21,329 nucleotides of DNA from Chthonomonadales bacterium (GTDB taxonomy: Bacteria > Armatimonadota > Chthonomonadetes > Chthonomonadales > Chthonomonadaceae): assembly GCA_038217285.1 (NCBI GenBank), contig JBBQPO010000079.1, positions 1 to 21,329 on the forward strand, in the 5' to 3' direction. A model generated the notes under the pieces. The model saw only the letters and a program-made list of their open reading frames with translations. It was not told the origin of the DNA and did no database searches. This document shows, piece by piece, positions 7,400 through 21,329 of the stretch. The stretch's first letter is position 1. The number at the start of each line of letters is the position of its first letter. Both the position numbers and the translations under genes were made by a program.

Positions 7400-7623
7400 A
7401 CGGACCTCCCATCTCCTCATGCCTACCCCTGGCACCCCGACTGCAACCCGCTTCAAATAGGTGAACCCATTCGGTGCTTGGCGCCGTCTAAATGTATGAG
7501 AGCGAAATTCAAAGCCGCACCATTGCGCCTCCGCAAGTCTCCATACCTTTCTGCGATAGCCCCCTTTTCAGTTTGCATCGCACCGTTCCCTGTCGGCAGC
7601 GCGCGGAGGTTGTAGGGCTCACC

Positions 7624-8355
7624 ATGAACGCGGTTGTTTTAAGAATGGGAAGGAAAAAACCCCCGGTGCGAAAGTGGAGCAAAGATACGATCGCGGGCGA
7701 AATACAGCGAATGTTCCAGACCGGTGAAAACCTGAACTACGCCAGCATCGCCGCCGAGGAAGTGGCGTTGCTGCGCGCGGCCACACGCTACTTCGGTTCC
7801 TGGCGCATCGCGATAGAGTACGCCGGACTGAACTACGACGATATTCGGCGCTATAAGACATGGACGCAAGAGCGCATTCTGGAGCGCATTCTGGAACTGA
7901 ACACATTGGGAGAAGACCTGAGCTGGCGGCATGTCAGCACCGTGGTCGACCCGCAACTGGCGGCAGCAGCGACCAAACACAAGCACTATGGCTCCTGGCG
8001 CGCCGCCGTCACGGCCGCAGGGCTGGACTATGGACAGATACGGCGCTACCGTGAGTGGGACGCCAAGACGATCGAGCAGAGGCTTCGCGATCTCCACGCC
8101 CAGGGTATCAATCTGAACGCCCGCCATGTCGAAGAGTACGACATCACGCTCATTACGGCAGCGCGAAGGCGGTTCAGCAGTTGGGATGCGGCCTTGACGG
8201 CCGCCGGCCTGGACTACCGCCAGATCGTCCTCCGCGCGCCTTTCAAGCGGCGCGCAAAACTGGCCCCGGCGACGGTTGTAGAGCGACGCCACTCGCCTCA
8301 AGCGGTGACGTCTGTCAGGGCAGGAGCAGAGCCTGTGGCGGTCGGCGCGAAATAG
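7624..8355 (+). CDS. Protein of three tandem ~63-aa repeats, resembling homing-endonuclease-associated repeats; putative nucleic-acid binding
   Basis: Repeats begin at Trp codons 7675, 7861 and 8056 with consensus W...I...I.....G.+L......L..AA...(F/Y)GSW..A+..AGL+Y..I. Start is uncertain (7492/7624/7645). Confidence 0.75.
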   Translation: MNAVVLRMGRKKPPVRKWSKDTIAGEIQRMFQTGENLNYASIAAEEVALLRAATRYFGSWRIAIEYAGLNYDDIRRYKTWTQERILERILELNTLGEDLSWRHVSTVVDPQLAAAATKHKHYGSWRAAVTAAGLDYGQIRRYREWDAKTIEQRLRDLHAQGINLNARHVEEYDITLITAARRRFSSWDAALTAAGLDYRQIVLRAPFKRRAKLAPATVVERRHSPQAVTSVRAGAEPVAVGAK

Positions 8356-15076: not shown

Positions 15077-15156
15077 TGGGCGCGGCAGGACTCGAACCTG
15101 CATGCACGCGGCGGGGGCTTTACAGGCCCTTGCTCACTCCGGCAAGCAGCGCGCCC
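15077..15156 (-). tRNA. Atypical tRNA-Tyr(GTA) or tRNA-like RNA
   Basis: Acceptor GGGCGCG/CGCGCCC+A73, D stem GCTT/GAGC, anticodon loop CTGTAAA, 12-nt variable region and T arm GCAGG-TTCGAGT-CCTGC. Non-canonical C8 and G14; CCA not encoded. Confidence 0.7.
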
Positions 15157-15211
15157 GAATGGGTCGGTGTCAGGCTGGAATAGTCGGTCTCCATGGTTAT
15201 CTCCTTCAAAT

Positions 15212-15287
15212 TGGGGCGGTTGGCGGGAATTGAACCCGCGTAAACGGATCCACAATCCGTCGCCTGAACCACTCGGCTACAACCGCC
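15212..15287 (-). tRNA. tRNA-His(GTG)
   Basis: G-1:C73, acceptor GCGGTTG/CAACCGC, anticodon arm ACGGA-TTGTGGA-TCCGT, T arm GCGGG-TTCAATT-CCCGC and encoded CCA. Confidence 0.93.
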
Positions 15288-15304
15288 ATATCCTTCATCG
15301 CACA

Positions 15305-15376
15305 TGGAGACGGAGAGACTTGAACTCTCAACCCTCTGCTTGCAAAGCAGGCGCGCTGCCGTTGCGCCACATCCCC
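15305..15376 (-). tRNA. tRNA-Ala(TGC)
   Basis: Acceptor GGGGATG/CGTCTCC with G3:U70 and A73, anticodon loop TTTGCAA and T arm GAGAG-TTCAAGT-CTCTC. CCA not encoded. Confidence 0.9.
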
Positions 15377-15480
15377 ACAGAAACTTTCTCGGTCATCCCA
15401 GAGGAGCGCAGGGCCGGACACAATCTCCCACCAACCGGCCCCGCTCTTTTCAAAGTCAACCGCAACAACAAAACAAGCGC

Positions 15481-15518
15481 AACACAAAACGGCCCGGTCT
15501 GTCGCGCAGACCGGGCCG
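15481..15518 (-). terminator. Intrinsic terminator (candidate attenuator) upstream of the tRNA cluster
   Basis: 12-bp perfect stem CGGCCCGGTCTG-cgcga-CAGACCGGGCCG followed on the minus strand by TTTTGTGTT. Confidence 0.85.
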
Positions 15519-15540
15519 CCCTTCCCACAAAATTGTGGGC

Positions 15541-15705
15541 TTATGGCAAGCGACGATCTTCCGGCAGAGCGGCATGGTAACAATAGTGGACAGGATGCGG
15601 TACGGGCAGCGTGTTGTTCAGAATCAGGCGCAACGCGGCACGCTCCATTGCCGGTGCGGCGAGGGCGAGGTTCTGTTCTGCGATCTGATTTCTGCGAGTA
15701 TCCAC
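15541..15705 (-). CDS. Putative 54-aa leader peptide (MDTRRNQIAEQNLALAAPAMERAALRLILNNTLPVPHPVHYCYHAALPEDRRLP)
   Basis: GAGAGG RBS 7 nt before GTG 15705, open to TAA 15541-15543, ending 22 nt before the terminator stem. Below the ORF-track length cutoff. Confidence 0.6.
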   Translation of the reverse strand: MDTRRNQIAEQNLALAAPAMERAALRLILNNTLPVPHPVHYCYHAALPEDRRLP

Positions 15706-15905
15706 GTGACTGCCTCTCTAGTGTCTGAAAATCGAGCGTTCGGGTTCTCCGTGCGTCTCACCTCTCTTGACCGGGTCGCCAACAGAGAAGTTGCAGGGCG
15801 CAATAACTTTTTTGGAAAGGAATGTCAGGGGGCGCGAAGGCCGGGAATCCGTGACGCCTCTCCTGCCGTTCTTGCGTCTAATGAACAGAGAGTGAGGAAG
15901 AGAGA

Positions 15906-18045: not shown

Positions 18046-18669
18046 ATGAGGCGAGAAGAGCTTACGGAGCTTCATTATATTACGCCCCATTCAAATCTTT
18101 ACTCTGTTCTGCGTTATGGTATCCTCTCGAATCACTGGTCAAAAGTCGGCGAAGCACGTGGAAAGATTGAACCTGCTTCTGTCGCTATGGCAGAAGTACA
18201 AGATGTTAGAGAGGGGGTTCGTGTTCCTGGGGGACGCGAGCTACATCAATATGCGAATCTCTACTTTTGCGCTCGTAACCCGATGATGTTTAAGCGGCAT
18301 GAACGTCATTTGGAACTCTGCGTTCTGCGGATCGATATCGCCGTTCTGGACCTTAAAGGAGCCATCGTTACCGATATGAACGCCGCAAAGCGCATTCGTC
18401 GCTTCGCACCTGCGTCTGAAGGATTGGTTCATGTAAACCGTGAAATGGTTTTTGCGGAAGATTGGCGGCATCACGGCGACCCAATCGCGTATGACCGCCA
18501 CAAGGCCATCAAGTGTGCTGAGGTACTGATACCAGACACAGTTCCGTCCGCGTACATAATCGGAGCTTACGTTTCCTGTCCTGCCGCTGCCGAGAGAGTG
18601 AATGAGATAGCTCCTCAGCTTACTGTTACGATTAACGGTAACCTGTTCTTTTACGAGGAACCACGATGA
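18046..18669 (+). CDS. darT: DarT ssDNA ADP-ribosyltransferase toxin (DUF4433)
   Basis: LHYITPHSNL..+L..GILS, YANLYF.ARNPMMF, TDMNAA and catalytic KCAEVLIP. ATGA overlap with the downstream macrodomain gene; GGAGG RBS. Confidence 0.9.
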   Translation: MRREELTELHYITPHSNLYSVLRYGILSNHWSKVGEARGKIEPASVAMAEVQDVREGVRVPGGRELHQYANLYFCARNPMMFKRHERHLELCVLRIDIAVLDLKGAIVTDMNAAKRIRRFAPASEGLVHVNREMVFAEDWRHHGDPIAYDRHKAIKCAEVLIPDTVPSAYIIGAYVSCPAAAERVNEIAPQLTVTINGNLFFYEEPR

Positions 18670-19793
18670 TTCGCGTGATGATAAGCGATATGTTTGAATC
18701 TGACGCGCAGACCCTGGTGAATACGGTTAACTGCGTCGGCATCATGGGCAAAGGAATAGCGCTTGAATTTAAGAGCCGCTTTCCTGAAATGTACGAAGAT
18801 TACGTGAAGTTGTGCAAGGCAGGCGAGGTAAACCTTGGAAAACCTTATCTTTATCGTTCGCTGTTGCCGCCATGGGTCTTAAACTTTCCGACAAAAGGCC
18901 ATTGGAGAGCCGTTTCAAAACTCTCGGACATCATTGCCGGACTGGAATACCTCGAACAACATTACAAGGAATGGGGTATCACCTCACTCGCATGTCCGGC
19001 GCTTGGCTGTAGCAACGGACAGTTGGAATGGCGCGTTGTTGGCCCAACCTTGTACCAGCATTTAAGCCGTCTGGACATTCCCGTAGAGCTCTATGCGCCC
19101 TTCGGTACGCCTCAAGAGCAGATGACCATGGATTTCCTGGCCCAAGAGGTAGATTTGAGCGCGGCGACTCGGAGTTCCGCCGAGGCTGAGCGTATTCCCC
19201 CGGCATGGGTCGCATTGACAGAGATTCTGGCACGGGTCGTGCGAGAGCGGTATCACTGGCCTGTCGGCAGAACGACTTTCCAGAAGATGGCTTACTTCGC
19301 TACCGAAGAGGGACTGCCAACGCGCCTGGAGTATCGTCGAGGCAGTTACGGGCCGTTTGCGGAAGGCCTCAAAGCGATGATTGCCCGTCTGGAAAATAAT
19401 GGGCTTTTGCAGGAGGAGCCGCTTGGCGAGATGTTCGCTGTGCAGCCTGGAGTAACTTACCAGGCGGCGACCGAAACCTATAAGGGCGACTTGCGGGAAT
19501 GGGAGCCACTGATTTCCAGGGTATCCGACCTGTTCCTGCGAATGAACACCCATCAGGCAGAGGTTGCTTCTACGGTGCATTTTGCAGCCAAGGAATTGGC
19601 ACAAAGATCGACTGAGGCTGTTACGGAGAAGGCCATTCTGGAGGCGGTCCAAGAGTGGAAGGAACGCCGCAGACCACCTCTCGAAGAGATCGAAATCGCC
19701 CAGGCCATTCGCGACTTGAATTTACTCGACTGGATACACGCCCAACCCAGCAACGATTTGCCTCTTCACGAACAAGATCTGCTGGAAGTCTGA
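18666..19793 (+). CDS. darG: DarG macrodomain antitoxin (DNA ADP-ribosylglycohydrolase)
   Basis: D+FES.AQTLVNTVNCVGIMGKGIALEFK, NFPTKGHW and PALGCSNGQLEW; C-terminal QKMAYF...YGPF domain. Confidence 0.93.
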   Translation: MIRVMISDMFESDAQTLVNTVNCVGIMGKGIALEFKSRFPEMYEDYVKLCKAGEVNLGKPYLYRSLLPPWVLNFPTKGHWRAVSKLSDIIAGLEYLEQHYKEWGITSLACPALGCSNGQLEWRVVGPTLYQHLSRLDIPVELYAPFGTPQEQMTMDFLAQEVDLSAATRSSAEAERIPPAWVALTEILARVVRERYHWPVGRTTFQKMAYFATEEGLPTRLEYRRGSYGPFAEGLKAMIARLENNGLLQEEPLGEMFAVQPGVTYQAATETYKGDLREWEPLISRVSDLFLRMNTHQAEVASTVHFAAKELAQRSTEAVTEKAILEAVQEWKERRRPPLEEIEIAQAIRDLNLLDWIHAQPSNDLPLHEQDLLEV

Positions 19794-20232
19794 TGCCTTT
19801 GCATTGGCCCAAGGGGACCGGATGTCGCGGCTGGCGGTGCATTAGCCGTATCACCTCAACAAGTCGAGGTGACCTTTTCACGTTCCCTGCCGTCAAGTGC
19901 AACGACTGTTGGCGGAGTTGAAAACCGAACAAAGAATTCAAAATCTAGGTCGGACAAACGCTTCACGGTGACACTCCGGTTCTGAAAGGCAGGGGGATTG
20001 CACCGAATTAACCTTTTAGTGCAATCGTGGTGCAATAACGGTGCAATCTTTGAGGGCTCTCATAAACTTCGATTAAAGGCCGGGCGAACTCTTCCCCATG
20101 AATCATAATCCAAAATGCCCCTAAATGGCGATGCGTGCCCAACGGAAACGTGGGCCAAGACGCGCTTGCGGGACACCCCAGCCTCGATTTGAAATTGGAA
20201 ACAGTTGCAGAACGGAGAGATGTGCCGCGAAT

Positions 20233-21056
20233 ATGGATATGAAACTCCTGAGTGAAAGGGACATCTGCACGAAGTTCATCACGCCTGCTGTCAAGCAAGC
20301 GGGTTGGGATGAGATGACTCAGGTTCGCGAAGAGGTGAGCTTTACCAAGGGACGTATCATCGTGCGAGGCAAACTGGTTACGCGGGGAAAGAGCAAACGT
20401 GCCGACTATGTGCTCTACTACCGGCCGAACGTCCCGCTCGCCCTGATTGAGGCGAAAGACAACAAGCATAGCGTGGGAGACGGGATGCAGCAGGGCCTCG
20501 AATATGCCGAAACGCTGGATATTCCTTTTGTCTTCTCGTCAAACGGGGAAGGCTTTGTGTTCCATGATCGCACCGGCACAAGCGAAGAGTTAGAGGCGTC
20601 GCTTCCTCTGCATGAATTTCCCTCACCGGAGGCGCTCTGGGCAAAATATCGCGCCTGGAAAGGGCTAACACCGGACGAAGAGGAGGTCGTCCTTCAGGAC
20701 TACTACGATGATGGAAGCGGCAAGGCTCCGCGCTACTATCAGGTCAACGCGATCAACGCGACGATAGAAGCCATTGCAAAGGGACAGAATCGCATTTTGC
20801 TGGTAATGGCGACAGGCACAGGCAAGACTTATACTGCCTTTCAGATCATCTGGCGCTTGTGGAAGGCAGGGCGCAAGAAGCGCATTCTCTTTCTTGCGGA
20901 TCGGAATGTGCTTATCGATCAGACGATGGTGAACGACTTCCGGCCTTTTGGCCCGGCGATGGCGAAACTCAGCACAGAGGCCAAAACCATCCAGCGTGCG
21001 GATGGAACCGAAATTGAACTCCCGCTTGCCCTCGATAAGAAGCGGAAGATCGACAC
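20233..21056 (+). pseudogene. hsdR: Type I restriction enzyme R subunit (EcoEI/EcoAI-like), truncated
   Basis: [31 protein letters not shown] nuclease motif, PRYYQ.NAIN, Walker A MATGTGKT and FLADRN.L.DQ. Similarity stops near RKIDT, after about 275 aa, and a stop follows at 21123. Confidence 0.88.
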
Positions 21057-21116
21057 TATGGCGATCAAAGTGGGCCAAAACCGAGTATCGAAATGGGCCA
21101 AGTTGGATTGTCAAAA
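21057..21116. mobile_element. IS-end-like remnant (IS21-family style repeated transposase-binding motifs)
   Basis: ATCAAAGTGGGCCAA (21064-21078) and ATCGAAATGGGCCAA (21087-21101) form a 23-bp-period direct repeat exactly where hsdR breaks off. Confidence 0.5.
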
Positions 21117-21329
21117 TCTATGACTGCCTTTTAGAAGAGTTTGAGGGCGTGATTGCGCCCTCACCCCATGCAGCAGCGGACCATCAGACTGCTCTGGACT
21201 ACCTGCCCAAAGGGACACAGGAACGGCGCCCGCCACAGGAAACAGAAAGCGTAGAAGGACCGGCGGCTTGCTTTCGGGCGAGCAGAAACAGTCACGGCAC
21301 CATCGCACCAGAAACGGACACGTCGGAAC

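Follow-up and report, generated by a model that had tools for sequence, protein, structure and literature searches.

The window analysed here, a stretch of 21,329 nucleotides (nt), is the whole of contig C79 (JBBQPO010000079.1) of a 6.2-Mb draft genome (assembly GCA_038217285.1, hereafter G000; 459 contigs, 95% complete) of a Chthonomonadales bacterium belonging to the Chthonomonadaceae. Its minus strand, on which all positions of leader and tRNA elements are read, carries a cluster formed by a tRNA-Ala gene, a tRNA-His gene and an atypical tRNA-Tyr-like gene, preceded by a promoter motif, a 54-codon open reading frame (ORF54), a small hairpin and an intrinsic terminator. When compared with its relatives, this upstream region is best explained as the regulatory leader of a tRNA gene array. 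The original prediction, made from the letters of the window alone, had gone further and proposed a leader-peptide attenuator that senses the very tRNAs it controls. The comparison set included 42 Chthonomonadaceae genomes (G-numbers), five JGI metagenome loci (L018–L022, retrieved with a pattern for the Tyr-like element), four proteins (P0001–P0004) and contigs from public runs (X2–X4).

Transcription of the cluster would be initiated by an alternative sigma factor at a promoter motif resembling those of the extracytoplasmic function (ECF) type (15767–15795), in which TGCAACTT at 15795–15788 is separated by a 15-nt gap from GGTCAA at 15772–15767. The motif, read directly, is located where the original prediction had placed it. 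Its shared form, TGCAACT-N-GGTCAA, was found in all of the eight leaders, and it lies 249–311 nt upstream of the hairpin at every locus carrying the module, L021 excepted, where the contig starts only shortly before the hairpin. The consensus of RpoE-type ECF promoters, as generally given, is GGAACTT-N16-TCAAA; compared with it, the motif displays the AAC of the -35 element and the GTC/TCAA of the -10 element, at a fixed spacing, upstream of several genes and at few genomic sites, as ECF sigma promoters do. Indeed, the strict motif occurs at three sites of this genome, each upstream of genes (the tRNA array, a sigma-70 gene and a MatE transporter gene), for a chance expectation that we estimate ourselves at about 0.2 (14 fixed bases, 5 spacings, both strands, 6.2 Mb), and a looser pattern gives four matches versus none for a reversed control. 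The other sites and near-matches in G000 are located at C103:15430, at C197:5142–5170 and on C128 and C40. The sigma-70 gene found behind the motif encodes regions 1.1 to 4. The site that precedes this gene has its own leader, in which a terminator-like hairpin and an upstream ORF of 8 codons are present. Near-matches of the motif are also found upstream of genes encoding an HNH endonuclease and a BlaI-type repressor. The motif sites of G000 may constitute a small stress regulon.

The motif probably acts as a promoter, since in the genome G022 it lies only 11 nt before the first tRNA gene of a second array (locus L061 on contig C60, about 10 kb from the first array; Ser, Ser, three Thr, two Val, Ile and others). 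This second array is devoid of both leader and hairpin. ECF-type promoters driving tRNA arrays were not found described in the literature searched.

Downstream of the motif, the 5′ untranslated leader (15706–15766, from a presumed transcript start) carries the Shine-Dalgarno-like sequence GAGAGG at 15718–15713, 7 nt before the GTG start codon of ORF54, which spans 15541–15705 and ends with a TAA stop codon. ORF54 contains 9 Ala codons, His codons at positions 37, 40 and 44 and Tyr codons at positions 41 and 43. The ribosome-binding site, the ORF and these codons are all as first described, and the 5′ leader therefore appears to possess the ORF with ribosome-binding site that is expected of an attenuator. 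Two protein searches retrieved four homologues of the putative peptide (P0001–P0004; 52–54 residues, 46–83% identity), and homologues are also encoded by L018–L020 (hmmsearch E-values 2e-25 to 5.5e-30), in which 48–50 of the 165 positions of ORF54 differ without a single indel (about 30% DNA divergence). In two further contigs, X3 and X4, the body of the ORF has the same length but has diverged, and both of its ends are kept.

Leader peptides are unrelated from one genus to another (MDTRRNQ..., MNFGKSTSAY..., MNIGRLYTIC..., MTAKIRSK...). Nevertheless, all five leader types include an ORF of 54–71 codons that starts 48–66 nt after the -10 element and stops 23–30 nt before the hairpin core. An ORF within loose versions of these limits was found in 65–116 of 2000 dinucleotide shuffles per leader (3.3–5.8%), a result that is suggestive and provides no formal probability, because the limits were chosen with the data already known and because the lineages have a common ancestry. 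No Pfam family matches ORF54, the genome that carries it has no paralogue of the leader or of its peptide, and, of the 41 other family genomes, 40 give no match to the peptide. The weak match obtained in the remaining one (G016; E = 0.004, hmmsearch E = 0.025) was treated as chance, and a 31-nt match in G004, devoid of any ORF similarity, is a short chance match. A scan of JGI metagenomes with the two closest peptides did not give any relative, and the ESM Atlas did not give any usable match for the leader peptide.

Directly after the stop codon of ORF54, folding predicts a small hairpin, CCCACAA-UU-UUGUGGG (15524–15539), followed by an intrinsic terminator (15481–15520) made of a G+C-rich 12-bp stem (15518–15490) with a 5-nt loop and of the U tract UUUUGUGUU (15489–15481). 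Both structures had been recognized at these positions in the original prediction. The 68-nt 3′ part of the leader that folds into the two hairpins has a free energy of -39.5 kcal/mol (z = -5.5), which none of 200 shuffled sequences equalled. A simple consensus terminator scan lists no terminator at 15481–15520, probably because the stem extends into the U run through G-U pairs. Among the structures of the leader, only the terminator and the small hairpin are supported by RNAalifold when the window is aligned with L018–L020. The terminator hairpin is almost invariant across relatives (GGCCCGGUCUG...CAGACCGGGCC, then Us): its stem core is identical in G001, G052 and L021 and displays a single G-U change in G022. 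Furthermore, a hairpin of differing sequence stands directly after the stop codon in every leader type. The sequence CCCGGTC of the terminator hairpin recurs in the -10 region of the promoter.

Two of the three genes located behind the terminator are solidly identified by both ARAGORN and Rfam, namely tRNA-Ala(UGC) at 15304–15377 (62.9 bits with the Rfam tRNA model) and tRNA-His(GUG), with an encoded G-1, C73 and CCA, at 15212–15287. The third one (15077–15156), first described as a tRNA-Tyr gene, does carry a GUA anticodon in a CUGUAAA anticodon loop, but it is missed by ARAGORN, and its best Rfam match, tRNA-Sec, reaches only 37.7 bits, below the 47-bit threshold. It is atypical in having a short variable arm and a C at position 8, whereas its acceptor stem and T arm are intact, as in the true tRNA-Tyr genes of other phyla, and its discriminator base is A. 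BLAST finds it 88–90% identical in G019 and G015 and 88% identical in G022, with compensatory changes in the anticodon stem, and ARAGORN calls its counterpart in G052 a tRNA-Tyr. A canonical tRNA-Tyr gene is present elsewhere in the genome (contig C106). In G022 and L022 (observed at loci L002 and L022), the 3′ acceptor strand of the Tyr-like gene is replaced, and the gene looks like a pseudogene in G022 and L022. The acceptor and T arms are identical to those of tRNA-Tyr from Saccharibacteria, Sungiibacteriota and a Humisphaera tRNA array, which hints at a horizontal spread of the Tyr-like gene.

The tRNA-His gene of the window is the only one that ARAGORN and Infernal found in the 95%-complete assembly, a draft that lacks 5% of the markers as well as the tRNAs of the rRNA operon. 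A second ARAGORN call, at C136:7704–7792, was treated as a false positive (89 nt, 73% G+C, no promoter, absent from the Infernal list). Since this tRNA-His is the sole copy found, the array of the window is not clearly supernumerary, and the proposal that it supplies replacement tRNAs is doubtful. The genome G015 carries a different tRNA-His gene, driven by a sigma-70 promoter and belonging to a type present in 15 of the 42 family genomes. This type was not found in the genus of G000, and the sole partial match there, in G003, turned out to be a tRNA-Gln gene.

The spacer that separates the terminator from tRNA-Ala (15378–15480) does not contain any recognizable sigma-70 promoter according to consensus scans. 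To put a figure on this, the best match to TTGACA-N16-18-TATAAT, counted out of 12 positions, was scored within 130 nt upstream of the tRNA units of this genome. Twenty-eight of the 41 first-in-unit tRNA calls score 10–12 and 31 score at least 9; among the 10 low-scoring units, five are ARAGORN-only calls absent from the Infernal list. The cluster of the window scores 7/12. At any locus carrying the module, the best match is at most 8/12 in the spacer and at most 9/12 anywhere in the leader and spacer. Moreover, the gap between the hairpin and the first tRNA gene measures 16 nt in G052, 24 nt in G022 and 30 nt in G001, which is too short to accommodate a promoter, and 113–133 nt at the other loci. 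A sigma-70-like promoter of the tRNA genes located downstream of the terminator, the arrangement that the original prediction had named as the one that would speak against it, was therefore not seen at any locus. An intrinsic terminator thus stands between the ORF and the tRNA genes without any sigma-70-like promoter after it, as in attenuators. Taken together, gaps of 16–30 nt and the lack of a sigma-70 promoter indicate that the arrays are transcribed from upstream, through the hairpin, and read-through of the leader and terminator is the probable route by which the tRNA genes are expressed.

The hairpin core (GGCCCGGTCTG...CAGAYCGGGCC) is present in four of the 42 family genomes, which belong to three genera (G000 and G001 from the same genus, G022 and G052), and at the five JGI loci, and it heads a tRNA array in all cases. 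The whole module, about 320 nt long, is composed of the promoter, a 250–310 nt leader that includes an ORF of 54–71 codons, and the hairpin followed by Us. In L018–L020, it is complete from the promoter to the terminator, with a homologue of ORF54, and is followed by tRNA-Ala, the tRNA-His position, a mini-ORF, the Tyr-like gene and further tRNA genes; ARAGORN calls the tRNA-His of L019 and L020, and the diverged copy of L018 is left uncalled. The content of the arrays is otherwise variable: Trp, three Ala and His in G022 and L022; Trp, Ala, His, Tyr, Pro, Glu, Glu, Phe, Gly, Asn, Met and Ile (12 tRNAs) in G052; Glu, Met, Asp and Ser in G001; and Trp, Ala, Pro and His in L021, where the hairpin only is seen, the contig end cutting off the upstream part. 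The array of the window, restricted to Ala, His and the Tyr-like gene, is small when compared with those of relatives, which contain at least 12 tRNAs in G052, at least 5 + 8 in G022 and 12 in L005.

Conservation within the module is uneven. In the comparison with L018–L020, identity is 83–93% for the promoter motif, 69% for the 5′ untranslated leader (without any net change in length), 70–71% for the ORF and 95% for the terminator hairpin with its U tract, versus 37–59%, with gaps, for the flanks (down to 37–50% for the upstream one). In each of the four sequences, exactly 249 nt separate the -10 element from the hairpin, despite a divergence of 30%. To judge from the sequences, this is the pattern expected of regulatory elements. 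Between genera, leaders cannot be aligned except in the promoter, the stop-codon region and the hairpin. The leader can also be found with a different downstream content. Thus, contig X2 joins the leader and terminator to the Tyr-like region while skipping 15254–15477, with 6 letters between the two sides, and contig X3 does so while skipping 15168–15473, with 44 letters between them, so that both contigs are devoid of tRNA-Ala and of an intact tRNA-His. The breaks of synteny in X2 and X3 (15474 and 15478) are no more than 4 nt apart and immediately follow the U tract. The leader may behave as a cassette placed before a variable tRNA content. Globally, relatives in three genera and in metagenomes bear out the proposal that promoter, ORF and terminator form a genuine, conserved leader that is physically linked to tRNA genes, and the conservation of the promoter motif, of the presence and placement of the ORF and of the hairpin appears to be more than chance.

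How such a leader could act can be considered in the light of these comparisons. The reading that we favour, with a confidence a little short of even, is a ribosome-mediated attenuation in which the ORF acts as a sensor of general translation. RNA polymerase starting at the ECF-like promoter would first synthesize a leader of about 280 nt that carries the 54-codon ORF, the small hairpin and the strong intrinsic terminator, and tRNA-Ala, tRNA-His and the Tyr-like RNA would be made only when the polymerase reads through. A ribosome reaching the stop codon, 23–30 nt before the hairpin core, would melt a structure that sequesters the 5′ arm of the terminator, and the terminator would form. If ribosomes were stalled or scarce, as might be the case under stress, the sequestering structure would stay and transcription would enter the tRNA genes. 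Three of the five leader types (L019, G022 and G052) have a nascent transcript whose minimum-energy fold pairs the loop-proximal CGGUCU(G) of the terminator arm with a (C)AGAC(C)G strand. This strand lies 12–20 nt before the stop codon, where the window has AGAUCG (15558–15553). A ribosome located at the stop codon would cover the (C)AGAC(C)G strand, which fits a sensor of the general progress of translation.

Various observations weigh against this reading. Concerning the alternative structure, pairing of the terminator arm with upstream sequences beats shuffles in none of the five leaders (a fraction of 0.47–0.89 of the shuffles does at least as well), and the RNAalifold covariation term, +2.38, does not give any covariation support. 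Concerning the ORF, the differences between ORF54 and its homologues in L018–L020 are distributed as 16/15/19 over the three codon positions, and the ratio of non-synonymous to synonymous substitution rates (dN/dS) is about 0.5, versus 0.76–1.2 in shifted frames, which denotes a weak constraint at the protein level. The G+C content by codon position is gene-like only in the clade of the window (0.71/0.47/0.60) and is flat or inverted in G022, G052 and G001; competing frames of the leaders also carry ORFs of 45–67 codons; the Shine-Dalgarno sequence is weak in G022 and lies 10–12 nt from the start codon in L018–L020. As mentioned above, the criteria of the ORF shuffle test were chosen after the data were seen. 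The leader peptides of G001 and G022 have no relatives in the protein collection searched, a negative result that says nothing on the reality of these ORFs. Concerning the terminator, neither G052 nor G001 has an uninterrupted U tract, so that the hairpin may not terminate transcription there. In addition, the stem is identical across genera without covariation, though loops, U tracts and surroundings have diverged, and this counts against a simple attenuator because a plain terminator does not require stem identity. Finally, if the terminator is efficient, the only tRNA-His found depends on read-through, an odd design for a sole copy.

The most serious competitor, which we nevertheless hold to be rather unlikely, does without any sensing. 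The promoter, ORF and hairpin would be those of an independent small gene or small RNA whose terminator is leaky, or else the hairpin would serve as a signal of processing, stability or recombination; read-through would be partial and constitutive, and the ORF would not have any role in control. Such an explanation could accommodate the invariance of the stem, the poor U tracts of G052 and G001, the changes of array content right behind the hairpin (junctions at 15474 and 15478), the second array of G022, which uses the promoter without the leader, the weak coding signals of the ORF and the lack of a significant antiterminator. However, it would leave without a reason the placement of the ORF, kept in five leader types of unrelated sequence, the constant length of 249 nt in diverged leaders and the position of a hairpin directly after the stop codon in all types. 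Furthermore, placing the sole tRNA-His behind a strong and unregulated terminator would be costly.

The mechanism put forward in the original prediction relies on cognate sensing. Ribosomes would stall at the Ala, His or Tyr codons of the leader when the corresponding tRNAs are short, GCCGCUCU (15573–15566) would then pair with AGGGCGGC (15522–15515) to form an antiterminator, and the cognate tRNAs would be made. This now seems improbable. The pairing does exist: its 8 pairs, one of them G-U, reach 4 nt into the 5′ arm of the terminator, and it corresponds to the minimum-energy fold of the nascent transcript in the window. However, among shuffled upstream sequences, 54% show a pairing with this arm that is at least as good, and the proposed one is not conserved in L018–L020, where the strands read GACGCUCC and AUGGCGGC and the helix is broken; four related contigs carry a G-to-A change at 15521. 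Moreover, the antiterminator strand starts right after codon 44, so that a ribosome stalled at codons 40–44 would probably cover the very strand that it should leave free.

The codons of the leader lead to the same appraisal. A patch rich in His and Tyr (codons 37–45), without any run of such codons, is kept in the eight known members of this leader family, seven of which have Tyr at codon 41, and the Tyr-like gene follows this leader in every relative seen. The patch is, however, absent from the unrelated peptides of the other genera, and it is retained in X2 and X3, in which no tRNA-Ala or intact tRNA-His lies downstream, contrary to what would be expected of a leader that senses the tRNAs it controls. 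A UGC anticodon directly reads GCA and GCG, which represent only four of the nine Ala codons of ORF54. The leader of the window shows no sequence relationship to those of G001, G022 and G052; that of G001 does not contain any His codon, and of its 12 Ser codons no more than 2 suit the tRNA-Ser(CGA) that it precedes. The match between the Ala, His and Tyr codons of ORF54 and the downstream genes is not more than chance. A cognate sensing limited to Tyr, for which the only argument is that the Tyr-like gene is always located behind this leader, is likewise unlikely.

A sequence found within the cluster itself gives another place to the idea of a tRNA that controls its own supply. Between tRNA-His and the Tyr-like gene, a strong Shine-Dalgarno sequence, AAGGAG, and a 24-codon mini-ORF (METDY...; 15120–15206) are present; the mini-ORF enters the Tyr-like gene, and its TAA stop codon is located in the anticodon loop. 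The Shine-Dalgarno sequence and ATGGARASCGACTAT are kept in L018–L022, with a synonymous GAA/GAG change. The frame of the mini-ORF relative to the Tyr-like gene is not kept, since it stops before the gene in L019 and is in another frame in L021, and no mini-ORF is found in G052, G019 or G015. Two nested feedback loops coupling tRNA supply to translation can be imagined, although the probability that they operate together is low. In the outer one, the ORF54 leader and its terminator would tie transcription of the array to the progress of ribosomes. In the inner one, the conserved mini-ORF (Shine-Dalgarno sequence and ME[T/S]DY) would gate the folding and 5′ processing of the Tyr-like tRNA: the tRNA could mature freely if a ribosome were stalled at codon 5, the conserved Tyr codon, whereas a ribosome reading on would unfold it. 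If so, ribosome traffic would let the tRNA adjust its own level, and the idea of the original prediction would hold in another place.

Lastly, a reader other than the ribosome (a small molecule, an uncharged tRNA as in T-boxes, or an RNA-binding protein) that would decide between termination and read-through could agree with the overall conservation of the leader at about 70%, its fixed length within the clade and the conserved sequence of the hairpin itself, but it has little to recommend it, as none of the five leaders has an Rfam match at E up to 1, apart from a chance-level Thr_leader, and as leaders from different genera can be aligned only in the promoter, the stop-codon region and the hairpin, a degree of divergence that ligand-binding aptamers do not usually reach. 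The Thr_leader match concerns the 3′ part of the G022 leader (L047:1493–1578, minus strand), which aligns with the threonine operon leader at 23.9 bits versus a threshold of 55 bits (E = 0.62), and it probably reflects a hairpin followed by a run of U.

As regards the setting of the module, an ankyrin-repeat gene is found on the plus strand from about 15951. The tRNA cluster being on the minus strand, the leader occupies a divergent intergenic region of about 570 nt. The contig also carries gyrA, a RES-Xre pair, DarT with a macro-domain partner and a type I restriction subunit. Genes of toxin-antitoxin or defence systems are found around the cluster at 128–1539, 7492–8355 and 18046–21123; they include a RES toxin-type gene with its Xre-type antitoxin, a gene encoding an HNH-associated-repeat protein, DarT with its macro-domain partner and the start of a gene encoding a type I restriction R subunit.

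By analogy, the layout of the module matches that of leader-peptide attenuators. Like the trpL, hisL, pheL, ermC and cat leaders, it displays a promoter, a short leader ORF (translated in those systems) and an intrinsic terminator that precedes the regulated genes, without any promoter in between. Regulatory codons and the antiterminator are the two features that lack a clear match here: the ORF, long for such a leader (54–71 codons), does not contain any run of regulatory codons, and the search for an antiterminator gave none that is conserved or has statistical support. The module also differs from these attenuators in that the regulated genes encode tRNAs rather than biosynthetic or resistance functions, and in that the promoter is ECF-like rather than a housekeeping one. 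T-box leaders also combine a leader with a terminator and are linked to tRNA supply. However, they bind uncharged tRNA and control genes for aminoacyl-tRNA synthetases and amino-acid metabolism, and the Rfam T-box model does not match the window or the four other leaders at E up to 1.

Textbooks place the control of bacterial tRNA genes almost entirely at the promoter, in response to growth rate and by way of the stringent response. To our knowledge, the only tRNA array with a worked-out regulation is that of Anabaena, which relies on the repressor TrcR. A full-text search of the literature, judged from its result listings, did not return any leader-peptide attenuator of a tRNA operon. In the long trn array of Anabaena sp. 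PCC 7120, the closest functional parallel, control is exerted by direct repeats at a sigma-70 promoter, to which TrcR binds, and the array is induced under translational stress (PMC8421152, PMC10272220). As proposed for the window, clustered tRNA genes are expressed there from one regulated upstream promoter, and the provision of extra tRNAs on impaired translation would be a further parallel. Unlike the Anabaena array, the cluster of the window has a leader ORF and a terminator, another type of promoter and only two tRNA genes and an atypical one, including what is apparently the only copy of tRNA-His. Attenuation was ruled out as a control of the Anabaena operon, the terms attenuat-, leader and terminator occurring 0 times in the passages of PMC8421152 covered.

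The module is compact, and it is conserved across genera of a poorly studied phylum, the Armatimonadota. It defines a motif for an alternative sigma factor whose small regulon would include tRNA arrays, a sigma-70 gene and an efflux pump. If the leader ORF and the terminator placed before the tRNA genes act as suggested here, they would link tRNA synthesis directly to the movement of ribosomes, and with the ORF54 unit a leader-peptide attenuator would become known for tRNA genes for the first time.

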